Assembly: GCA_944388805.1 (NCBI GenBank)
Contig: CALXKE010000001.1
Location: 48,090 to 112,089, forward strand
Direction of reading: 5' to 3'
DNA length: 64,000 nt
Source of the DNA: an uncultured Clostridia bacterium
GTDB taxonomy: Bacteria; Bacillota; Clostridia; TANB77; CAG-508
In this document: one piece after another, positions 918-48,712 of the stretch
Layout of the letters: each line of letters begins with the position of its first letter
How positions within the stretch are numbered: the stretch's first letter is position 1
The notes under the pieces: generated by a model
Database searches by the model: none
Seen by the model: the letters and a program-made list of their open reading frames with translations, nothing else
Told to the model about the DNA's origin: nothing
Position numbers and translations under genes: made by a program

Positions 918-933
918 AAAAATCCTCCTTTTT

Positions 934-1019
934 TGTCTCATTGAGATTGTTTGTGTCGCATTGAGTTCGTTTGTCTATGCGACATTTGTCTCATTGAGAT
1001 CGTTTGTCTATACGACATT
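934..1019. repeat. Family-2 repeat, about 3 tandem 31-nt palindromic units (tgtctcattgagNtcgtttgtctatgcgacat)
   Basis: Direct reading; unit has 8-bp terminal inverted ends atgtcgcat/atgcgacat; other copies at 13065, 15256, 19928, 22688, 39561, 63567. Confidence 0.8.
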
Positions 1020-1287
1020 ATTTTTTAGTATAATCTTTTTCTAAATCTGTTACTAACGCAAATCTTGTTTTTTGACCAGTGATATTGTCTGGTCTTTCTG
1101 GAATTTCTTCTAAAAACATTTTCTCAGGTCTCACCCATAAGGAGCGCCCATCTTCTCTAGGGTATAAAGGTTTATATACAACCATTCTTTCTTTTGTTTC
1201 CGAGTTATATGCCACATTTTCAACAAAGTAATAGTTTCCTTTAAAATGACGATAAACTTGTCCAATTTTTACTTCTTCCATAAACAC
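1018..1287 (-). CDS. DUF1653-family small protein
   Basis: 89 aa; motif GQVYRHFKGNYYFV...SETKERMVVYKPLY...LWVRPEKMF resembles DUF1653 as recalled from memory. Confidence 0.5.
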   Translation of the reverse strand: MFMEEVKIGQVYRHFKGNYYFVENVAYNSETKERMVVYKPLYPREDGRSLWVRPEKMFLEEIPERPDNITGQKTRFALVTDLEKDYTKK

Positions 1288-7178: not shown

Positions 7179-7187
7179 TAAATAAAA

Positions 7188-7454
7188 AGGGATTTTGGGG
7201 ACGGACTCAAATTTCCCTTTTTATCCAATTAGGACGTTTGAGGGATTTTGGGGACGGACTCATTTTTCCCTTTTTAGAATTTTAAGTATATAAAAAATAT
7301 AAATTATAAAGATGAACTAGTTTTGCATACTTAAAATTAAACTTAGAAAGTTAGTTTACACATAAAATTATAATAATGTTGTATTTTATAATTTTAGGGG
7401 ATTAATGCAAAAAAGGGAAAAATGAGTCCGTCCCCAAAATCCCTCAAACGTCCT
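7188..7454. repeat. Family-1 inverted-repeat element, copy A, between dnaK and dnaJ
   Basis: Left arm ggacgtttgagggattttggggacggactcatttttcccttttt; right arm is its exact reverse complement at 7410-7454; 130-bp AT-rich interior; an extra partial unit at 7188-7225. Confidence 0.85.
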
Positions 7455-11835: not shown

Positions 11836-11852
11836 TGACCAATGGTGGTTCG

Positions 11853-12019
11853 AGGAATTTTGAGGGATTTTGGGGACGGACGAAAAGGGAAATCGGGGAC
11901 GGACTCATTTTTCTCTTTTTCTCCAAAACAACTTTAAAATATATTAAATTTTGTGAAAAGGGAAAAATGAGTCCGTCCCCGATTTCCCTTTTCGTCCGTT
12001 CCCAAAATCCCTCAAAATT
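11853..12019. repeat. Family-1 inverted-repeat element, copy B (short interior)
   Basis: aattttgagggattttggggacggacgaaaagggaaatcggggacggactcatttttc mirrored at 11962-12019 with 1 mismatch. Confidence 0.85.
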
Positions 12020-12025
12020 ACGCAA

Positions 12026-13075
12026 ATGTCCCTAATTGGACAAAAAAGGAGGAAGTTAAAATTGGAAGAAGACAGAATTATTAGCCCAGAACTAGAGAAT
12101 ACAGGAGAAGAACGACTAGAAAATTCATTAAGACCAAAAACATTAGATGAATATATTGGACAAGATAAAATAAAAGAAAATATGAAAGTTTATATAGAAG
12201 CAGCTAAAAAAAGAGGAGAGCCATTAGACCACGTTTTATTGTATGGACCTCCTGGGCTAGGAAAAACGACGTTATCAAATATTATATCTAATGAAATGAA
12301 TTCTAATATCAAAATTACATCTGGTCCAGCAATTGAAAAGCCGGGGGATTTAGCGGCACTTCTTACAAATCTTTCAGAATTTGATGTTTTGTTTATAGAT
12401 GAAATCCATAGACTTAGTAAGAGTGTTGAAGAAATCTTATACCCTGCACTAGAAGATTATACATTAGATATTATTATAGGAAAAGGACCAAGTGCAAGGT
12501 CAATCAGGTTAGATTTACCGAAATTCACATTGATTGGGGCTACCACAAAAGCAGGGTCATTGACAACACCATTAAGAGATAGATTTGGAATTGTGCATAG
12601 ATTAGAGTTATATTCTGTAGAAGACCTTACAAAAATTGTAAAACGTTCTGCCGGAATTTTAAATGTAGAAATAGAAGAGGAAGCAGCAACAGAAATAGCC
12701 AGAAGATCAAGAGGAACACCTAGAATAGCAAACCGTTTATTAAAAAGAGTTAGAGACTATGCAGCAGTATTAGGTGATGGGAATATTACTTTAAAAATCA
12801 CAAAACATGCATTAAATAAGCTAGAAATTGATGAGCTAGGATTAGATGAAATTGATAGAAAAATATTAGATACCATGATTGTACAATATGCAGGAAGACC
12901 AGTTGGAATAGAAGCCTTAGCAGCAACAGTTGGCGAAGAAGTGGATACGATTGAAGATGTCTATGAGCCATATTTAATACAAATTGGATTTATTGCAAGA
13001 ACATTAAGAGGAAGAGTGGTATTACCACCAGCATATAAACATTTAGGGTATCCATGTCCCAACGATGTCGCATAG
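12026..13075 (+). CDS. ruvB: Holliday junction branch migration helicase RuvB (likely start TTG 12062 after RBS aaaggagg)
   Basis: [12 protein letters not shown]..., Walker [10 protein letters not shown], RuvB sensor motifs. The last 3 codons and stop (DVA*) lie inside the family-2 repeat. Confidence 0.9.
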
Positions 13076-13131
13076 AGTTCGTTTGTTGACGCGACATTTT
13101 GTCCCAACGAAAACGTTTCCTAATACGACAT
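13065..13131. repeat. Family-2 repeat, 2 units; provides the ruvB stop
   Basis: atgtcgcatagagttcgtttgttgacgcgacattt + tgtcccaacgaaaacgtttcctaatacgacattt. Confidence 0.75.
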
Positions 13132-13753: not shown

Positions 13754-13845
13754 TGATTTTAATAGAATTGAAGTTAAGATATAAGTGAATTAGTTTTTTG
13801 AGATTAAATAAATCATATAGGAAAAAGAGGAAAATAAAAGAAAAG

Positions 13846-15336
13846 ATGAAGGAAAAAGTAATAGAATTTATTAATTCAAAGAAAATAATCTTAATTGTTT
13901 TTGTATTGGCTACTATCATATTTGCCATACCATCTATGAAGTATTTATTAGAAAATGGGACAATACGAAACTTTAATGAATATTTTAAATTTTGTTTAGA
14001 TGATACAACAAGTCAATTTGGACAAACCATAATATATATTGCTATTTTAATAATATTAACAATCGTTTATTTCTTAATCGTCAAAAATAGAAATAAGCTA
14101 TTTAAAAATAATAAGCAGATGTATATGTATATAGCAATTATTTCACTAATCTTTGTAGTAGTTGTACCGTTCTTAAGTTCAGATGTCTTTTACTATTTAG
14201 GTGTGGGAAGATTAGATAGCAAATATGGTCAAAATCCATATTATGTAACAATAAAAGATTTTGTAGAAAGTGGAGAGAATAGTCAATATTTAGAGCAAGA
14301 TACAGTATTAGCAAAAGGGTATGAGAATGACTGGGGAAGCACAACAGTTGTATATGGACCAGTTTGGACATTGATTTGTAAGATAGTAGCAGGGATTTCT
14401 TTTGGAAATATTGATATTGCTTTATTAGTATTAAAATTATTCAATATAGCAAGTCATTTATTGAATTGTTATCTTATCTATAAATTAACAGGAAAGAAAT
14501 TATTTGTGCTATTATATGGATTAAATCCATATATGTTTATAGAAAGCATTGCAAATGTACATAATGATATATATGTTGTCACATGTATATTAGCATCTTT
14601 GTATTTCTTATTAAAAAAGAAAAATCTGATTGTTAGTGTTGTATTTTTGGCATTGTCTACTGCAATAAAATATTTTGCCATTTTACTCTTACCATTTATG
14701 ATTATTTACTATTTTAGAGACAAAAAGCCTTTAGAAAGATTGAAGAAATGCTTCTTATATGGTATGCTATTTGTATTTATAGTGGGAATTACATATTTAT
14801 TATATATACAAGATATACAAGTATTAAGTGGAATCATAACGCAACAACAAAAATTTGCAAAAAACTTTTATATTATCTTAATGGAATATTTTGATAGATC
14901 AAATTTGGTTACTAATGTAAATGCTGTATTTTTAAGTTTATTTATCATCATCTATTTCTTTACTTGTTTGACAGTATTATACAAAAAACAGATAACATTT
15001 AGAGAAGAAATGAGAAAAGCAGAATATTTTTTAATAGCATTCCTATTTTTGCTAATCACCAATTTTCAACCATGGTATATTATGTGGTTATTTCCATTAA
15101 TGATGTGGCAAAAGAAAAAGATGATACAATTTGTTGTGCAAATCGCATTGATAAGTCAATTTGCCAATAGTGTATTCTTAATCAATGGAGAAGGTTGGAG
15201 AAATGGAACACCATTTACATTTTTTATGTTGTTAGGTATTTTTGTGTTTCAAGAAATGTCGCATAGACAAACGAACCTAATGCGACATACCCAAAAAGAA
15301 AAAAAGGAGGACAAAAATGGATATAACAATCAATAA
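13846..15336 (+). CDS. polytopic integral membrane protein, possibly a GT-C-type glycosyltransferase; C-terminus extended through a family-2 repeat
   Basis: At least 10 predicted TM helices; RBS aaagagg before ATG 13846. C-terminal ...MSHRQTNLMRHTQKEKKEDKNGYNNQ is encoded by a reverse-oriented repeat unit and overlaps the next gene by 20 nt. Confidence 0.4.
   Translation: MKEKVIEFINSKKIILIVFVLATIIFAIPSMKYLLENGTIRNFNEYFKFCLDDTTSQFGQTIIYIAILIILTIVYFLIVKNRNKLFKNNKQMYMYIAIISLIFVVVVPFLSSDVFYYLGVGRLDSKYGQNPYYVTIKDFVESGENSQYLEQDTVLAKGYENDWGSTTVVYGPVWTLICKIVAGISFGNIDIALLVLKLFNIASHLLNCYLIYKLTGKKLFVLLYGLNPYMFIESIANVHNDIYVVTCILASLYFLLKKKNLIVSVVFLALSTAIKYFAILLLPFMIIYYFRDKKPLERLKKCFLYGMLFVFIVGITYLLYIQDIQVLSGIITQQQKFAKNFYIILMEYFDRSNLVTNVNAVFLSLFIIIYFFTCLTVLYKKQITFREEMRKAEYFLIAFLFLLITNFQPWYIMWLFPLMMWQKKKMIQFVVQIALISQFANSVFLINGEGWRNGTPFTFFMLLGIFVFQEMSHRQTNLMRHTQKEKKEDKNGYNNQ
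15256..15288. repeat. Family-2 repeat, single unit in reverse orientation, in frame inside the CDS
   Basis: atgtcgcatagacaaacgaacctaatgcgacat. Confidence 0.75.
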
Positions 15337-18782: not shown

Positions 18783-19331
18783 ATGATAATAGGTACGGTT
18801 ATTGTGGTACTCATAATAGCCATACTATTTGTTCTGTTTAAAGATAAATTATTAAAAATATTGTACCCTAAAACATATAGTGACATTATATCAGTCTATG
18901 CGGAAGAATATGATGTAGATGAAAATTTAATATATGCAGTCATAAAAGCAGAAAGTAATTTTGATAGTAGAGCAGTTTCTAATAAAGAAGCAATTGGATT
19001 AATGCAAATTGTAGAAGAAACAGCGGTCGATGTTGCAAAGAAAAATAATATAGATATTGATACAGAAAATATAGAAGAAGAAATATTAGATATTGATAAC
19101 AATATTAATATTGGAACAAAATATTTATCAACATTATTAACACAATATGGAAATATAGAAGTAGCATTAGCAGCATATAATGCAGGCATCGGAACAGTGA
19201 ACAATTGGATAGAAAAACAAATCATAAAAGCAGATGGATCAGATATAGAAAATATACCATATAAAGAAACGAATAATTATGTAAGAAAAATATTAAGAGA
19301 CTATCATATATATAATGAGTTATATGGATAA
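18783..19331 (+). CDS. lytic transglycosylase (SLT domain) with N-terminal TM anchor
   Basis: AESNFDSRAVSNKEAIGLMQI...AYNAG matches the SLT catalytic motif. Confidence 0.65.
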   Translation: MIIGTVIVVLIIAILFVLFKDKLLKILYPKTYSDIISVYAEEYDVDENLIYAVIKAESNFDSRAVSNKEAIGLMQIVEETAVDVAKKNNIDIDTENIEEEILDIDNNINIGTKYLSTLLTQYGNIEVALAAYNAGIGTVNNWIEKQIIKADGSDIENIPYKETNNYVRKILRDYHIYNELYG

Positions 19332-19360
19332 TGGAAAAATCAACAAAAGGAGGAAGAAAA

Positions 19361-19936
19361 GTGAGAATTATATTAGCATCTCAATCTCCAAGAAGAAAAG
19401 AATTATTAGCATTAATTGTTCCTAAATTTGAAATTATTGTAAGTAATCAAGAAGAAACTTTAAATGCTGAATTATCAGTAGAAGACCAAGTAACTGAAAT
19501 TGCATATGCCAAGGCAAAGAATGTTTATGATAGAACTGAAGGTGATAGAATCGTCATTGGTTCTGATACGATTGTTACAAAAAACGGGAAAATATATGGA
19601 AAACCAAAAGATAGAAATCATGCAAAAGAAATGATAAAAGAATTAATTACAGGAGATAAAGTTCATGAAATTATTACTGGATTAAGTATTTTAATAGAAG
19701 AAAATGGTCATTTAAAAGAATATAAAACATATGATACTGTAAAAGTATATCTAAAAGATATATCAGATGAAGAAATAGAAAGATGGTTAGATACAGGTAA
19801 TGCGATGGACAAGGCAGCAGCTTATGGAATTCAAAATGAATTTTGTGTACATGTAGAAAAAATAGAAGGAAATTATACATCTGCTCTTGGATTACCAACA
19901 CATATGGTATATGATATTTTAAAAATGTTGCATTAA
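19361..19936 (+). CDS. maf: Maf-family nucleotide pyrophosphatase
   Basis: VRIILASQSPRRKELL...GSDT Maf signature; GTG start after RBS aggagga. Last codons and stop (MLH*) lie inside a family-2 repeat. Confidence 0.8.
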   Translation: MRIILASQSPRRKELLALIVPKFEIIVSNQEETLNAELSVEDQVTEIAYAKAKNVYDRTEGDRIVIGSDTIVTKNGKIYGKPKDRNHAKEMIKELITGDKVHEIITGLSILIEENGHLKEYKTYDTVKVYLKDISDEEIERWLDTGNAMDKAAAYGIQNEFCVHVEKIEGNYTSALGLPTHMVYDILKMLH

Positions 19937-19996
19937 GATTGTTTTTGTTTGAGAGATTTGAGACATTGTCGCATTAGGATCGTTTTTGTTTGTGAT
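19928..19996. repeat. Family-2 repeat, 2 units; provides the maf stop
   Basis: ttgcattaagattgtttttgtttgagag ... ttgtcgcattaggatcgtttttgtttgtgatag. Confidence 0.65.
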
Positions 19997-20164
19997 AGTA
20001 TCTTGAACAGAACAATGATAAGTAAATAAGAAATCTTTTTACAAAAAATGGTTGAAAAAATGACAATATTGTAATATAATTGTAACAAAATTGTAACAAG
20101 AGAAATATAAGGTTAGGATAAAAGATTATTTTTCTTATGGAATAAAAATAAAAGAAGGGAAGAT

Positions 20165-21267: not shown

Positions 21268-22698
21268 ATGAAAACAGTAGCATTTATTACATTGGGTTGT
21301 AAAGTAAATCAATATGAAACAAATGCCATGACACAGCAATTTATAGAAAAGGGGTATGAAATTGTAGATCATACTCAAAAAGCAGATATCTATATTGTCA
21401 ATACTTGTACAGTAACCAATATGTCAGACAGAAAATCTAGACAAATGTTAAGAAGAGTAAAAGAATTAAATAAAGAAGCAATTGTTGTTGCTTGTGGTTG
21501 TTATGCGCAAGTAGCAAAAGAAGAATTAGAAAAGATAGAAGAAATTAATTTAGTATTAGGAAATAATGAGAAAAAAGATATCGTAGAATATGTTGAAACA
21601 TATATACATCATCAAACTTTAAATGAAAATAAAGAAGATACATTACATATAAAAAATAAAAGTAAAAAAATAGAGGAAGATGTAAACGTATCACAAAACA
21701 AAGAAATAACGGCAAATGCAGAAAAAAATAAAATAACAACAAACAGAGTAGAAACACAGATAGAAGATGTCATGAACCAAAAGGAGTTTGTGGAATTTGG
21801 AGACATTACCTTTACAGAAAAGACAAGAGCTGTTATCAAAATTCAAGATGGTTGTGACCGTTTCTGTTCTTATTGTATCATTCCATATGCACGAGGAAGA
21901 GTAAGAAGCAGAAAACCTGAGCATATTTTATCTGAAATTCGTAAAATCGCAAAAGAAGGCATAAAAGAAGTGGTAATCACTGGAATTCATATTGCCTCAT
22001 ACGGAAAAGACTTTAAGCAGGAATATCGATTAATCGATTTATTAGAAGAAATGAACGAAATAGAGGGAATTGAAAGAATCAGACTAGGATCTATAGAACC
22101 TTTATTAATAACAGAAGAATTTGTCAGCAGATTAGAAAAATTGTCTAAAGTATGTCATCAATTTCATTTATCATTACAAAGTGGTTGTGATGAAACATTA
22201 AAAAGAATGAATAGAAGATATACCACAGACCAATTTAAAGAGATAACAAAGTTGTTAAGAAAAACATTTGAAGATGTCATATTAACAACAGATATTATTG
22301 TAGGATTTCCAGGAGAAAGTGAAGAAGAATTTGAAAAAACTTATGAATTTTTAAAAGAAGTTAAATTCTATAAAATGCATGTATTCAAATATTCACCAAG
22401 AAAAGGAACCAAAGCCGCAGTGATGCCAAATCAAATAGATGGAAATAAAAAAGAAGAAAGAAGTAGAAAATTAATAGAGCTATCCAATAAGAATGAAAAA
22501 GCATATAATCAACAATATATAGGAAAAGAAGTGGAAGTCCTTTTTGAGGAAGAAAAAAATGGTGTATGGCAAGGACATACAAAAAATTACATATTAGCAC
22601 ATTATAAAACAGAGGAAAATATGGAAAACAAAATGATAAAATTACAATGTGTAGGAGCAGAAATAGAATATGTCCTTTTGAAAACGTTGTCTCATTGA
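21268..22698 (+). CDS. MiaB-family radical-SAM methylthiotransferase (MtaB-like) with a roughly 70-aa low-complexity insert
   Basis: N-terminal MTTase domain (FITLGCKVNQYET), CxxxCxxC radical-SAM motif (DGCDRFCSYCIIP), TRAM-like C-terminus. Stop (LSH*) supplied by a family-2 repeat. Confidence 0.8.
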   Translation: MKTVAFITLGCKVNQYETNAMTQQFIEKGYEIVDHTQKADIYIVNTCTVTNMSDRKSRQMLRRVKELNKEAIVVACGCYAQVAKEELEKIEEINLVLGNNEKKDIVEYVETYIHHQTLNENKEDTLHIKNKSKKIEEDVNVSQNKEITANAEKNKITTNRVETQIEDVMNQKEFVEFGDITFTEKTRAVIKIQDGCDRFCSYCIIPYARGRVRSRKPEHILSEIRKIAKEGIKEVVITGIHIASYGKDFKQEYRLIDLLEEMNEIEGIERIRLGSIEPLLITEEFVSRLEKLSKVCHQFHLSLQSGCDETLKRMNRRYTTDQFKEITKLLRKTFEDVILTTDIIVGFPGESEEEFEKTYEFLKEVKFYKMHVFKYSPRKGTKAAVMPNQIDGNKKEERSRKLIELSNKNEKAYNQQYIGKEVEVLFEEEKNGVWQGHTKNYILAHYKTEENMENKMIKLQCVGAEIEYVLLKTLSH

Positions 22699-22750
22699 GA
22701 TCGTTTGTCAATGCGACATTGCCCCATTGAGATTGCTTTTGTTTGCGAAA
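22688..22750. repeat. Family-2 repeat, 2 units
   Basis: tgtctcattgagatcgtttgtcaatgcgacatt + gccccattgagattgcttttgtttgcgaaatt. Confidence 0.75.
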
Positions 22751-22892
22751 TTTTCAAAACATAAAATGTAACAAAAATGTAACTATTTTGTAATGGATAT
22801 TTAACAAAAAAAGAAACAAAAAGTATTGATAAAAAACAAAAGATATAGTACAACTAATATAATAGATATATAGTTACAAAGGAGAAATTTAA

Positions 22893-23213
22893 ATGGCAGA
22901 TATAAGAGAGGAATTTAATTTATATAATGAAACAGAATTTCATAATGAAAGTAATCAAGATATGAAAAAGGGAGAATTTATAGAAGAAAAAAACTTGCCT
23001 GTACTTGCTAAGCAAGGACTTTGGGAAAGATTCAAGGCTTTTTGGTTCCAAGAAATTGAATTAAGTCAAATAATCAAAATACAATTCAATGTATATAAAC
23101 CAAAAGAAGAAAACGAAATAAGCAAATCTTCATATATAGGTAGTGCTTTGAAAAAAATACATGATGTTTTATTTATGGAAATTACATTTGGTAAAAAAAA
23201 TGCAGAAGTATAA
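22893..23213 (+). CDS. hypothetical protein (106 aa)
   Basis: Good RBS aaaggag; no recognisable motifs. Confidence 0.4.
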   Translation: MADIREEFNLYNETEFHNESNQDMKKGEFIEEKNLPVLAKQGLWERFKAFWFQEIELSQIIKIQFNVYKPKEENEISKSSYIGSALKKIHDVLFMEITFGKKNAEV

Positions 23214-23294
23214 AATTGTTTTTAAAAGTATAGCAAAATAAAGAAAAATATGCTATACTTTTTTTGTTTTAAGGCAAAAGGAGAGAAAAGAAAA

Positions 23295-37279: not shown

Positions 37280-37987
37280 ATGGCAATATATACAATAGGA
37301 GACCTTCATTTATCCTTTAATGAAGATAAGCCAATGAGCGTCTTTGGAGAAAATTGGGAAGGATATGAAGAAAAAATAAAAGAAAATTGGATAAACCTGG
37401 TAACAGAAAATGATTTGGTCATATTACCAGGAGATTTTTCATGGTCAATGTATTTAAAAGATACATATAAAGATTTTGAATATCTAAATTCTCTACCAGG
37501 TAAAAAGCTATTATTAAAAGGCAATCATGATTATTGGTGGTCTACAGTCAATAGTATGAGAAACTATATAAAAGAAAATGACTTTAAGGATATTGACTTT
37601 ATATATAATAATGCATATGAATTTGAAAATAAAATCATAGTAGGAACAAGAGGATGGTCTTTTGGGGAAGATGCAGAAAGCAAAAAAATGATTCAAAGAG
37701 AAGTGGCAAGATTAGAATTATCTATCAAAAGTGGAATAGAAAATTATGGAGAAGACAAAGAAATTATTGCATTTTTACATTATCCACCAATTGTAAATCA
37801 AAATGTACAAAAAAATGAAATGAATGAATTTATTAAAATGTTGAAAAAGTATGACATAAAGAGATGTTACTATGGACATTTACATAGTATGGCAATAAAA
37901 GAAGCAGTGGAAGGAGAACATTTTGGGATTAAGTTTCAATTGGTGAGCGCTGATGCTGTTCAGTTTAATTTAGTAAAAGTAGGATGA
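37280..37987 (+). CDS. calcineurin-like metallophosphoesterase
   Basis: IGDLHLS, GDF, GNHDYW motifs. Confidence 0.7.
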   Translation: MAIYTIGDLHLSFNEDKPMSVFGENWEGYEEKIKENWINLVTENDLVILPGDFSWSMYLKDTYKDFEYLNSLPGKKLLLKGNHDYWWSTVNSMRNYIKENDFKDIDFIYNNAYEFENKIIVGTRGWSFGEDAESKKMIQREVARLELSIKSGIENYGEDKEIIAFLHYPPIVNQNVQKNEMNEFIKMLKKYDIKRCYYGHLHSMAIKEAVEGEHFGIKFQLVSADAVQFNLVKVG

Positions 37988-37995
37988 GTATTTTT

Positions 37996-38148
37996 GAGGA
38001 AAATTGGGGACTGACGAATCGGGAAATCGGGGACGGACTCATTTTTCCCTTTTTATAAAATTTAATATATTTTTTAGTTATTTAAGTAAAAAGGGAAAAA
38101 TGAGTCCGTCCCCGATTTCCCGATTCGTTCCCAAAATCCCTCGAAATT
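37996..38148. repeat. Family-1 inverted-repeat element, copy C
   Basis: gaggaaaattggggactgacgaatcgggaaatcggggacggactcatttttccctttt mirrored at 38090-38148. Confidence 0.85.
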
Positions 38149-38860: not shown

Positions 38861-39571
38861 TTGCAATTATTCGGTTTATTTGTAGGACAATTGGTTGATT
38901 GGGCGAATAAACGATTACCAGAATATAAAAAGTTTTTATCATTAGATATATTTAAAGAATATAAAAGAAAATTCAAACCAAACTATATATTGATGTTATT
39001 AACATCTGCAATTTATGTAACATTGGTTTATACATTGGGAATAAAAGATACATTAATTGCCAATTTAGATTTAATAAAATTCTTGATTTTAACACCAATG
39101 TTGTTATCTGCATTTGTTATAGATTACAAATATCAAATCATACCAAATAGATTGAATCTAACCATATTTGAAATTGGGTTAATATTTGCTTTCATATATG
39201 GATTATCCAATGTAGCAATTACTTTAAATATGTTATTAGGAATGTTAGCTGGTGCAGGAATTTTTTTAGTTATCACATTAGTTGGTGGATTATTTTATGG
39301 AAAAGAAGCCATGGGATTTGGTGATGTTAAATTAATGGGAGCATTAGGATTATTTTTTGGATTATCTAATATTGTGGTAATCACATTAATATCTTTCTTA
39401 ATAGGTGCCATATTGAGTATAGGACTATTAATTACAAAAGTAAAGAAAACAGATGAATATATACCTTTTGGACCATTTATCGTAATTGCAACATTTATTA
39501 GTATGTATATACCATTTGAAACAATAAAATTTGTATTAATGAAGATATTTACACTAGGAATGTCTCATTGA
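38861..39571 (+). CDS. A24-family prepilin peptidase; N-terminus probably frameshifted (see findings)
   Basis: GFGDVKLMGALGLFFG catalytic-Asp region, polytopic. A strong RBS aaggaga+ATG at 38821 opens a different frame that closes at 38895. Stop (MSH*) comes from a family-2 repeat. Confidence 0.7.
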   Translation: MQLFGLFVGQLVDWANKRLPEYKKFLSLDIFKEYKRKFKPNYILMLLTSAIYVTLVYTLGIKDTLIANLDLIKFLILTPMLLSAFVIDYKYQIIPNRLNLTIFEIGLIFAFIYGLSNVAITLNMLLGMLAGAGIFLVITLVGGLFYGKEAMGFGDVKLMGALGLFFGLSNIVVITLISFLIGAILSIGLLITKVKKTDEYIPFGPFIVIATFISMYIPFETIKFVLMKIFTLGMSH

Positions 39572-39622
39572 GATTATTTGTCTGTGCGACATGTCTCATT
39601 AAAGTTATTTGACTGTGCGACA
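39561..39622. repeat. Family-2 repeat, 2 units
   Basis: tgtctcattgagattatttgtctgtgcgacatgtctcattaaagttatttgactgtgcgaca. Confidence 0.75.
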
Positions 39623-39631
39623 AAAATATAA

Positions 39632-46795: not shown

Positions 46796-47022
46796 AATTA
46801 AATATCTGCAGTGAAGAAGAAAAAGTGTGATAATATTTACTTAAAGAGAGTTGGTGAAGGTGAGATACCAATGGTAAATACACATGGGGAGCTTTGGAGT
46901 GGATTTGGAATGAAGGTGCTTGAAACTTCAGATAACTTTAATCTAAGTTTTAAGAATTAGGGTGGAAACGCGGAAATAATAACTTTCGTCCCTAGCTATA
47001 TGCTAGGTATGAAAGTTTTTTG
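46796..47022 (+). promoter_or_regulatory. T-box riboswitch leader (glycine) with terminator
   Basis: AGAGA box (46846), T-box sequence aattagggtggaaacgcgg (46956-46974), terminator aactttcgtccctagc-tatat-gctaggtatgaaagtt+tttttg (46981-47022). A GGU triplet in the candidate specifier region (ccaatGGTaaa). Confidence 0.75.
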
Positions 47023-47026
47023 TTTT

Positions 47027-47285
47027 AAATCGATTAGATTCATCATCTAGCACATTTTCGTAATTTATTTCAAACCTCAATGTACAAACGTACACCTTCG
47101 GCTTGAAAGTAAATCACAAAAATGCACTATATAATAAATCTAATCGATTTAAATGAAATAGAGGTAGATTCATCATCTAGCACATTTTCGCAATTTATTT
47201 CAAACCTCGATGTACAAACGTACACCTTCGGCTTGAAAGTAAATCACAAAAATGCACAATATAATAAAGGTACTCTATACAAAAA
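47027..47285. repeat. Family-3 repeat, two tandem 127-bp copies between the T-box terminator and glyQS
   Basis: Copies 47030-47156 and 47157-47283 are about 95% identical. Core tcaaacctc(a/g)atgtacaaacgtacaccttcggcttgaaa holds a TGTAC-N4-GTACA palindrome. Copy 1 is flanked by the inverted repeat aaatcgattagat/atctaatcgattt. Confidence 0.85.
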
Positions 47286-47329: not shown

Positions 47330-48712
47330 ATGTTAAAATCAATGGACACTTTAGTAGCACTTTGCAAAAATAGGGGATATATTTACCCTGGTTCAGAAAT
47401 TTATGGAGGGTTAGCCAATACTTGGGATTATGGACCTTTAGGAAATGAACTAAAAAACAATGTCAAAATGGCATGGAGAAAGAAATTTATACAAGAAAGT
47501 AAATATAATGTAGGATTAGATGCAGCTATTTTAATGAATCCAACAACATGGGTTGCTTCAGGACATGTAGGAGGATTTTCAGACCCATTAATTGATTGTA
47601 AAGAATGTAAAACAAGACATAGAGCAGATAAATTAATAGAAGAATGGGCACATGATAATGGAAAAGATATGATTGCAGATGGTATGTCTGATAAAGAGTT
47701 AATAGACTTCATTAATGAAAATAAAATACCATGCCCAAATTGTGGAAAAACAAACTTTACAGATATCAGGAAATTTAATTTAATGTTTAAAACATTCCAA
47801 GGCGTAACAGAAGATAAAACAGCAGAAATCTATTTAAGACCAGAAACAGCACAAGGTATATTTGTAAACTTTAAAAATGTAATGAGAACAACAAGAAGAA
47901 AATTACCAATGGGAATTGCACAAATCGGAAAAGCCTTTAGAAATGAAATCACACCTGGAAACTTTACATTTAGAACTAGGGAATTTGAACAAATGGAATT
48001 AGAATTCTTCTGTAAACCAGGAACAGATTTAGAATGGCATGCATATTGGAAAGAATTCTGTAAAAAATGGTTATTAGATTTAGGAATCAAAGAAGAAAAT
48101 ATTAGATTAAGAGATCATTCAAAAGAAGAATTATCACATTATAGTAATGCAACAACAGATATCGAATTTACATTCCCATTTGGTTGGGGAGAATTATGGG
48201 GAATTGCAGATAGAACAGACTTTGACTTAAAGAGTCATATGAATGTTTCAAAAGAAGACTTCACTTATACAGACCCAGAAACAAACGAAAAATATGTACC
48301 ATATTGCATCGAACCATCTTTAGGAGCAGATAGAGTAGCATTAGCATTCTTATGCAATGCATATGATGAAGAAGAAATTGGTGAAGGAGATACAAGAGTT
48401 GTATTACATTTACATCCAGTATTAGCACCATTCAAAATAGCAGTACTTCCATTATCTAAAAAATTATCAGAAAAAGCACAAGAAGTACATGAAAAATTAT
48501 CAAAGAAATTTATGTGTGATTATGATGAAACAGGAAGTATCGGAAAGAGATATAGAAGAGAAGATGAAATTGGTACACCATATTGTTTAACAGTAGATTT
48601 TGATACACTTGAAGACAATACAGTAACTATCAGAGATAGAGATACCATGGAACAAATTAGAATTCCAATCGATGAGGTAGAAAGCTGGTTAGAAGAAAAA
48701 TTAGAATTTTAA
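47330..48712 (+). CDS. glyQS: glycyl-tRNA synthetase (alpha2 dimeric type)
   Basis: Class II motifs; [16 protein letters not shown]-terminus typical of GlyQS; T-box upstream. Confidence 0.95.

Follow-up and report, generated by a model that had tools for sequence, protein, structure and literature searches.

Repetitive extragenic palindromic (REP) sequences of E. coli, Pseudomonas and Stenotrophomonas are imperfect palindromes of ~33 nt that occur in many dispersed extragenic copies, both singly and in clusters, and the systems that they form with REP-associated tyrosine transposases (RAYTs) are defined by the REPtron layout, in which a Y1/HUH transposase gene lies between inverted copies of the same repeat (PMC3733652; PMC5581495). 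Inverted REP doublets (REPINs) flank RAYT genes, and for the Group 1 RAYTs, which occur in Clostridia, only low-abundance flanking repeats have been found (PMC5581495). REPs that provide stop codons have already been described (Di Nocera 2013): termini carrying the GTAG tag, which with CGTC defines two REP superfamilies and not REPs as a whole, often give a TAG stop to flanking open reading frames (ORFs), and REPs also lie inside ORFs (PMC3733652). In E. coli, REPs located 15 nt or less from a stop codon stall ribosomes (PMC12306157). Here we describe Family 2, a palindromic repeat in a 64,000-nt stretch of DNA from an uncultured Clostridia bacterium (the window; GenBank assembly GCA_944388805.1, contig CALXKE010000001.1, positions 48,090–112,089), where it forms the ends of four genes. 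Family 2 is very probably a REP family of a narrow, uncultured, low-GC Clostridia clade that is or was spread by a cognate Y1/HUH RAYT, leaving C-terminal tails as by-products. The supply of stop codons by REPs is already known; what is new is a further REP family with a cognate RAYT in Clostridia.

Family 2 resembles the described REP/RAYT systems in the length, dispersal and clustering of its units, in a Y1/HUH gene set between inverted copies of the same repeat (L121 and L122, two sister contigs; related loci are given here by L numbers), in the presence of several repeat families per genome, each with a RAYT paralogue (Family 3 at L118, L120 and L071), in units that touch or provide stops with occasional copies inside ORFs, as for GTAG REPs (PMC3733652), and in the many copies 15 nt or less from a stop (PMC12306157). 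It differs in having neither a GTAG nor a CGTC tag, in its unusually large conserved 15-nt loop, in arrays that are mostly direct tandems with the inverted REPIN doublet not predominant, in a RAYT of ~255 amino acids (aa) with a C-terminal extension that scores below the NCBIfam equivalog cut-off, and in its host, an uncultured low-GC Clostridia lineage. Its arrays are also enriched upstream of genes and depleted between convergent ones; the usual place of described REPs, by contrast, is after coding regions, where the neighbouring ORFs are unidirectional or convergent.

Three further systems invite comparison. Rickettsia palindromic elements are reportedly 100–150 bp long and insert inside genes; as with those elements, a palindromic repeat is here translated with the host gene left intact (11–12 repeat-encoded residues in a membrane protein and in the Maf of relatives), but Family-2 units are 33 nt, affect the extreme C-terminus only and share no sequence relationship with them. 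Mycobacterial interspersed repetitive units are said to measure 40–100 bp, to carry small ORFs thought to allow translational coupling and not to be hairpins with a cognate RAYT; Family 2 likewise consists of short repeats that fill the intercistronic spacers of operons, with ends overlapping the upstream stop and the downstream start region, yet its units are hairpins with a cognate RAYT. Finally, the forward unit is like a rho-independent terminator in combining a hairpin with a short U-run at gene ends before promoter-bearing spacers. Such a terminator has a G+C-rich stem, a loop of 3–8 nt and a U-tract and stands where transcription units end, convergent gene pairs included, whereas Family 2 has a 15-nt loop, weak and often mismatched stems and conservation of sequence as well as structure. 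Most of its copies lie inside operons in the orientation that would not terminate, and few are placed between convergent genes.

Family-2 units in the window and in the clade

A profile made from pattern copies, with degenerate members added by repeat finding, places 14 Family-2 units at 8 sites in the window, which has a G+C content of 29%:

933–954, plus strand: partial unit, third member of an array between the stop of a DUF1653 gene and the ribosome-binding site (RBS) of the next minus-strand gene
954–985, plus strand: full unit with 0 mismatches to the pattern; conserved at the orthologous site in 6 sister loci
987–1018, plus strand: full unit whose last base overlaps the TAA stop (1018–1020, minus strand) of the DUF1653 gene
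13065–13097, plus strand: forward unit, giving ruvB (12026–13075) its DVA ending and TAG stop (13073–13075)
13099–13131, plus strand: degenerate second unit of the ruvB array
15255–15288, minus strand: reverse unit, in frame in the C-terminal tail of membrane-protein ORF 13798–15336; present in 3 of 5 orthologous loci
19925–19965, plus strand: degenerate forward unit, giving maf its MLH ending and TAA stop (19934–19936)
19966–19999, plus strand: degenerate second unit after maf
22687–22719, plus strand: forward unit at the focal site, giving the MtaB-like gene (21268–22698) its LSH ending and TGA stop (22696–22698)
22720–22750, plus strand: degenerate second unit of the mtaB array
39560–39592, plus strand: forward unit, giving the prepilin peptidase gene (38861–39571) its SH ending and TGA stop (39569–39571)
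39591–39623, plus strand: second unit of the peptidase array
63562–63594, minus strand: reverse unit closing a window-specific insertion that contains a 124-aa ORF (63158–63532)
63649–63681, minus strand: reverse unit within a 5′ leader, with a TATAAT box ~10 nt upstream and the Shine–Dalgarno sequence (SD; AAGGAG) of the next gene 2 nt downstream; two units at this site in sister genomes

The array at 933–1018 is reverse-oriented relative to its flanking genes because those genes lie on the minus strand. With up to 3 mismatches allowed, the unit pattern matches 7 times in the window and 0 times in 100 dinucleotide-preserving shuffles; chance or coding resemblance was rejected for Family 2, since 0 matches are expected and the tails of orthologues differ.

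The consensus, drawn from 178 full-length copies in the window and in related loci, is a 33-nt palindrome, TGTCGCAT-TGAGTTCGTTTGTCT-ATGCGACA, with a T-rich flank before TGTCGCAT and a run of 4–5 T after ATGCGACA in the position-specific composition (T at positions 33–36 of the forward unit in 92, 88, 74 and 65% of copies). Both flanks are T-rich in the forward orientation, and a conserved target motif is absent. A MITE derived from a DDE-type insertion sequence would have terminal inverted repeats and a target-site duplication; the arms could be read as inverted repeats of 8–9 bp, and the low-complexity T-runs on either side would hide a duplication. Most copies have a stem of 8 bp, a ninth pair forming only where position 1 is A, and the stem encloses a 15-nt loop of conserved sequence. 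Stem pairs are nearly invariant, the central pair being G-C in 122 units, a T·C mismatch in 38 (21%) and a compensated variant in only 8. The loop starts with TGA in 59 units, TAG in 56, TAA in 25 and TGG in 25; selection for an in-unit stop codon was rejected, as these triplets point to subfamily structure and stops are not enriched. In either orientation the consensus folds at about −15 kcal/mol (z −4.5 to −6) with complementary A/T flanks artificially added, and real window copies fold at −7.6 to −9.4 kcal/mol. Rfam returned zero matches on any Family-2 unit, at gathering or E ≤ 1 thresholds, and a terminator scan called none of the units, the 15-nt loop being outside its criteria.

The family is confined to a narrow clade. 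A scan of one genome per species (185,579 species) with an exact 26-nt pattern found 119 matches at 70 loci, all in 8 uncultured Clostridia/Eubacteriales assemblies, and the profile found no units in more distantly related loci totalling 212 kb. A phage origin was rejected, the pattern being without a match in viral contigs. In 609 kb of clade loci, the profile census counted 185 units, grouped into 115 arrays. Of these, 54 hold one unit, 54 are doublets and 7 hold more; 48 of the doublets are in the same orientation and 6 inverted, plus 4 longer mixed arrays; inverted pairs and mixed arrays always run forward then reverse. A CRISPR (clustered regularly interspaced short palindromic repeats) array was rejected as well, since units abut or lie 0–11 nt apart, at 1–4 per array, without the unique spacers of ~25–40 nt that such an array would have. 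The window is syntenic with many census loci at 83–98% nucleotide identity, and arrays mostly occupy orthologous positions, in up to 7 genomes, where copy number varies between 1 and 3 units and orientation occasionally differs. Genes were called with a simple, crude ORF-based caller, which placed 16 of the 115 arrays inside a gene; the ones inspected, in the membrane protein and in its orthologues, overlap the C-terminal end.

A candidate cognate transposase

The link to RAYTs, which were found through gene-context look-ups, rests on sister-genome contigs. Both L121 and L122 carry P0146, a 255-aa PF01797 protein whose gene (1501–2268) has three forward Family-2 units upstream (1149–1248) and three reverse units directly after its stop (2269–2384). 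These inverted arrays around the RAYT are the classical REPtron layout. The best NCBIfam match of P0146 is NF047646, REP-associated tyrosine transposase, at 61.9 bits over the full model (IS200, 20.5 bits), and both the HUH motif (HVH) and the tyrosine motif YIHQNP are invariant among the RAYT paralogues. A sequence search with IS200 TnpA and with E. coli YafM gave no significant match; its best YafM match (E 0.23) was a real RAYT, in L071.

A second pair of repeat and transposase exists in the clade. Two genes downstream of mtaB, one sister genome has a 256-aa PF01797 (Y1_Tnp) gene set between inverted copies of Family 3 (ATGTCCTTTTGGGGACGTTTCTGTTTGGGACAT), and this Family-3-flanked RAYT (L118, L120, L071) is a 64%-identical paralogue of P0146. 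Family 3 aligns with Family 2, shows compensating arm changes (TGTCCCA/TGGGACA vs TGTCGCA/TGCGACA) and carries an internal GACG. Its copies at L118 8909–8945 and 9990–10110 and at L071 4758–4795 and 5832–5945 flank the RAYT between mtaB and radA; the reverse copy ends in CCAAAAGGACAAAATG and appears to supply the AAGGA SD of radA.

The initial annotation did not consider a REP/RAYT system, which is what Family 2 is on this evidence. REP–RAYT work has been done mostly in Proteobacteria, and Family 2 would add an abundant REP family with its cognate RAYT in Clostridia.

Gene ends formed by the repeat

Pfam assigns the four genes that end in units in the window to UPF0004 plus Radical_SAM (MiaB/MtaB type), Peptidase_A24, Maf and RuvB. 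The initial annotation placed a unit over the 3′ end of each, and all four ORFs do end inside one: the last codons are TTG TCT CAT TGA in the MtaB-like ORF (21268–22698), ATG TCT CAT TGA in the peptidase ORF (38861–39571), ATG TTG CAT TAA in the Maf ORF (19331–19936) and GAT GTC GCA TAG in the RuvB ORF (12026–13075). Translation table 11 yields long unbroken ORFs and TGA terminates 46 of 529 called ORFs; TGA is therefore a genuine stop here. In the forward frame, positions 1–12 read (A/T/G)TG TCN CAT T(GA/AG/AA), or NTG-TCN-CAT-TRR, and the predicted shared -SH tail is the plain translation of those positions.

Orthologues without the fusion end differently, and the window tails are therefore best read as repeat-derived. 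MtaB orthologues in more than 60 protein clusters (82–94% identity) finish in ...AEQEYIIVN, and the window protein alone among these clusters finishes in ...AEIEYVLLKTLSH (...EYVLLKTLSH). Distant relatives at 81–82% identity end in ...IIVN or ...IIVE, without a unit downstream, and a TGTAAC-rich region after mtaB is conserved in relatives. In the clade as a whole MtaB has at least 8 different endings, and one second, independent lineage ends in ...LIVSH. The peptidase of L042, whose neighbouring genes are 97% identical, ends in ...TLGMYN followed by TAA, one A and a single unit; the window peptidase ends in ...TLGMSH, is followed by two units and in the alignment lacks 13 nt between two ATGT repeats. 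Both units of this array carry a derived TTATTTG motif, which points to a local tandem duplication.

RuvB of L004 and L053 ends in ...GYPYQENM, with a TAA that overlaps the first base of a reverse-oriented unit, and the window RuvB ends in ...GYPCPNDVA after a 7-nt junction deletion (alignment), with the array inverted relative to L004 and L053. The two-unit array (13065–13131) is wholly inverted against L004 6095–6170, which fits a flip-flop inversion between palindromic arms. Maf orthologues mostly end in ...YDIIKEYI(N), the closest ones in ...YDILKNVQLGTFLFGTF, with more than 20 endings in the clade; in L125 the maf DNA reads through a related unit in frame (AAT GTC CAA TTA GGG ACG TTT CTG TTT GGG ACA TTT TAA), and the Maf of relatives is predicted to contain the unit as NVQLGTFLFGTF. 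In L032 a protein ends in ...SMKWSH where the orthologues in L029 and L063 end in ...NEMEI with a TAA touching the unit, and the sequences read by eye show a junction gap of ~8–9 nt. Comparison of orthologous C-termini had been set beforehand as the test of whether the resemblance belonged to the coding sequence; the termini differ, upholding an insertion for MtaB, Maf, RuvB and the peptidase, and the comparison supports a repeat origin of the tails over a resemblance of coding sequence.

A reverse unit was also reported in frame in the C-terminus of a membrane protein, and the translation of ORF 13798–15336 does include the unit, as ...QEMSHRQTNLMRHTQ... (MSHRQTNLMRH). Two details of that description need correction. 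The reverse unit, held to be free of stops in every frame, has GTC GCA TAG in one frame and, in this copy, ACC TAA in a second, and sister genomes end the membrane-protein ORF on the TAG. Nor does the unit account for the extension of the ORF into the next gene, as the unit-less orthologue in L054 also enters the start of the HD-domain gene (by-eye alignment, in the window's frame).

A scan of the window and related loci for ORFs ending in units, with a minimum length of 80 codons, gave three classes. Ten end at unit offset 9 (the xSH class), of which ~7 are real genes; nine have a stop that overlaps exactly the first base of the unit, in either orientation (TAA in 6, TAG in 3); and two, ruvB and one sister membrane-protein ORF, end on TAG at offset 8. 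The -SH ending occurs on at least 7 proteins, namely the window MtaB and peptidase and those ending in EMSH (L001), QMSH (L030), KWSH (L032), PMSH (L042) and ILSH (L041). An odd C-terminal tag shared by unrelated proteins is thereby explained as a by-product of a mobile repeat, and in the annotation of these uncultured gut Clostridia, C-termini that vary and are encoded by repeats are to be expected and should not be taken for functional motifs.

Some genes come and go beside units. maf (window 19331–19936) is present in L125 and absent from L034 (4860–5040), L021 (6240–6430) and L039 (600–470); in maf-less genomes the TAA of the upstream SLT-domain gene directly overlaps the unit (GGATAATGTCGCAT), and the breakpoints agree with a deletion between AATG microhomologies located at the unit. 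In L021, L037, L039 and L118 (936–1664) an additional gene, for a CoaE-like P-loop kinase, stands between the membrane-protein and HD-domain genes, directly after reverse units; the window (15288–15317) and L054 are without it. As maf, the 124-aa ORF and the CoaE-like gene are present or absent beside units, we considered whether they might be integron-like cassettes for which the units serve as attC sites. We rejected that as a general reading because maf loss fits an AATG microhomology deletion, the maf–mreB neighbourhood is shared with relatives and the CoaE-type gene is bounded by units on one side at most.

Placement and orientation of arrays

Arrays occur in 68 of 383 tandem, 19 of 62 divergent and only 3 of 57 convergent gene pairs. 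Relative to the majority gene strand, 108 units are reverse and 36 forward (~3/4 reverse). Most reverse arrays finish 1–27 nt before the SD of the downstream gene and not beside a stop, and forward arrays touch or cover the upstream stop and have long promoter-bearing spacers after them. In spacers of at least 40 nt, with the data collapsed to 51 orthology clusters, forward-only arrays are nearer the stop in 8 cases and nearer the SD in 0, and reverse-only arrays in 5 and 17, respectively (Fisher 2.2e-4). A replication-strand cause of orientation was rejected, as it alone fails to explain position-dependent orientation within the same spacer type.

Units commonly abut stops, frequently in the form TA-A|TGTCGCAT, and 44 of 98 arrays begin 15 nt or less from the upstream stop (counted from listed offsets). 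Overlap with a stop codon, however, is seen at 4 of 8 window sites against ~5 of 108 arrays elsewhere (counted from listed ORF-end cases). The window is atypical for the clade in being rich in forward units (11 vs 3), which is why stop overlap seemed so frequent from the window alone.

Origin of the repeat and alternative explanations

These observations would be accounted for, in all probability, by a REP family spread by its RAYT. We infer mobilization of the units by the RAYT by analogy with E. coli TnpA-REP and with IS200/IS605 single-strand transposition. Copies would pile up as singles and short tandems in very short intergenic spacers, presumably surviving nowhere but in the short gap that separates a stop from the next RBS in a compact genome, forward copies by stops at the ends of transcription units and reverse copies just upstream of an RBS. 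Because units abut stops, small deletions or duplications at the junction can remove the native stop; hairpin-prone junctions would lose or gain a few bases, as the deletions of 7, 13 and ~8 nt suggest, and the fused ORF would then end after three repeat codons, (M/L/V)-S-H-stop, making the loss tolerable or harmless and the tails near-neutral. In other frames or orientations the unit would be read through instead, as in the membrane protein (MSHRQTN...) and the Maf of relatives. The orientation rule may have either or both of two causes: forward copies, with hairpin and U-run, would terminate transcription and be purged from operon interiors, or insertion may have a fixed polarity into A-runs, which are common before an SD on the sense strand. 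A rule that puts forward copies at stops and reverse copies before an RBS, together with the scarcity between convergent genes, is unlike classical REPs and offers a handle on transcript selection versus insertion polarity.

Several results weigh against a RAYT-spread REP family. The 61.9 bits of P0146 fall below the NCBIfam curated cut-off of 80, and a PDB sequence search for the P0146-type RAYT gave no match. The window holds no RAYT and its syntenic slot downstream of mtaB (23213–23250) is empty, so current mobility in this genome is unproven. The consensus is without the GTAG or CGTC tetranucleotide, and direct tandem doublets outnumber inverted REPIN-type pairs by 48 to ~10. Most arrays recur at orthologous sites in different species, which agrees with a retained function as well; estimates of this conservation are biased by census loci that were picked by pattern match and are partly orthologous. 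A search for filled and empty sites by flank synteny gave copy-number differences and false pairs caused by Family 1, a second repeat of the window, and no clean pair.

A possible, if less probable, alternative is that units are kept mainly as RNA elements, the forward ones as intrinsic terminators or 3′ stabilizers and the reverse ones as 5′-leader or intercistronic hairpins that stabilize or tune the downstream cistron; copies within ~15 nt of a stop would be translational attenuators as in E. coli, and stop supply a compaction of stop and hairpin. It could coexist with a RAYT origin. It draws on the predicted fold (about −15 kcal/mol for the consensus with its added flanks, −7.6 to −9.4 in window copies), the T-run after the forward unit, forward arrays set against stops before promoter-bearing spacers with reverse arrays 1–27 nt before an SD, the unit at 63649 just downstream of a TATAAT box at a predicted mRNA 5′ end, and persistence at orthologous sites in up to 7 genomes. 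The 44 of 98 arrays that begin 15 nt or less from a stop lie in the ribosome-stalling range of E. coli REPs (PMC12306157). Such a role sits poorly with the rarity of arrays between convergent genes (3 of 57 pairs), with a 15-nt loop outside terminator criteria and no unit called as a terminator, with 38 of 178 stems mismatched centrally against 8 compensated variants, with the decay of the window copies at 13099, 19925, 19966 and 22720, and with a loop conserved in sequence, beyond what a purely structural role would demand. Selection for a terminator hairpin, one of two causes that the initial annotation proposed, is not supported as a general explanation, given the convergent depletion, the loop and the mismatched stems; that annotation was right to derive the tails from an inserted repeat, and it is its general causes that lack support.

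We think it unlikely that the REP families of the clade now serve, by co-option, as gene-boundary modules whose role depends on orientation, with forward units supplying a stop, a hairpin and a U-run, reverse units a leader hairpin at a fixed distance of a few nucleotides before the RBS, and the Family-3 unit apparently the SD of radA; were it so, a selfish repeat would have become the operon punctuation of a streamlined genome.

The other proposed cause was a preference for gene ends, and it is very unlikely that the transposition machinery targets stops or gene ends directly (TAA, or TA followed by A), with stop overlap as a matter of target choice. Nine long ORFs do have their stop over the first base of the unit, as TA-A|TGTCGCAT or TA-G|TGTCGCAT (position 1 being G) in both orientations, among them the SLT gene in L034, L039 and L125 and ruvB in L004 and L053, and in L121 the TAA of the RAYT gene itself directly precedes a unit. 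Most arrays, however, are closer to the downstream SD than to the stop, the reverse ones mostly 1–27 nt before it; arrays are most frequent in divergent spacers (19 of 62 pairs), where there is no stop; the flanks are T-rich only, without a conserved target motif; and small deletions, judged against a sister genome in which a unit already stood beside the native stop, explain the three best-resolved fusions. Stops inside units amount to ~7 true genes, ruvB and one membrane-protein ORF, and target preference is not supported as a general explanation.

That the (M/L)-S-H tail is itself functional, a degradation or localization tag under selection, is extremely improbable even though -SH recurs on at least 7 unrelated clade proteins and in a second, independent MtaB lineage (...LIVSH), since the tail is a literal translation of unit positions 1–12, close orthologues are without it, the endings of MtaB (at least 8) and Maf (more than 20) are typical of an unconstrained end, and TGG starts the loop in 25 of 178 units, as often as TAA.

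Other repeats and neighbouring features

The window also contains one unit of Family 3 type:

62471–62503, plus strand: Family 3 type unit (GTGTCACATTGAGGATGTTTCTGTTTGGAACAT) following a Family-1 hairpin; a hybrid copy

Family 1, with the core GGGATTTTGGGGACGGACTCATTTTTCCC, forms inverted pairs that make long hairpins of 110–230 nt, and lies at 7182–7296 and 7388–7443, 11852–11995, 37986–38128, 54021–54219 and 62435–62470. Its hairpins gave spurious sub-threshold Rfam scores as plant microRNA precursors. In L045 a further RAYT paralogue (181–2, minus strand; 31% identical across the N-terminal 60 aa) has a similar GGGGACGG-core palindrome in front of it, and Family 1 may therefore represent one more REP or REPIN family that has a RAYT of its own.

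The insertion that ends in the reverse unit at 63562 is part of a ~480-nt segment (63100–63600) missing from L038 and L007, which contains a promoter-like region, the 124-aa ORF (63158–63532; no Pfam match), a G+C-rich hairpin (63533–63552) and the unit. Repeated TGTAAC motifs at 22760–22800 and 20065–20100 (AAAATGTAACAAAAATGTAACTATTTTGTAATGG, ATTGTAATATAATTGTAACAAAATTGTAACAAG) stand upstream of the 106-aa gene after mtaB and of mreB, possibly as an operator for a transcription factor, and the first set is kept in relatives down to 60% MtaB identity. A T-box leader match at 46802–46996 (plus strand; 68.9 bits, below the gathering threshold of 93, E 8e-13) lies upstream of ORF 47330–48712 and is followed by a 119-nt direct repeat whose two copies (47035–47153 and 47165–47283) are 92% identical.

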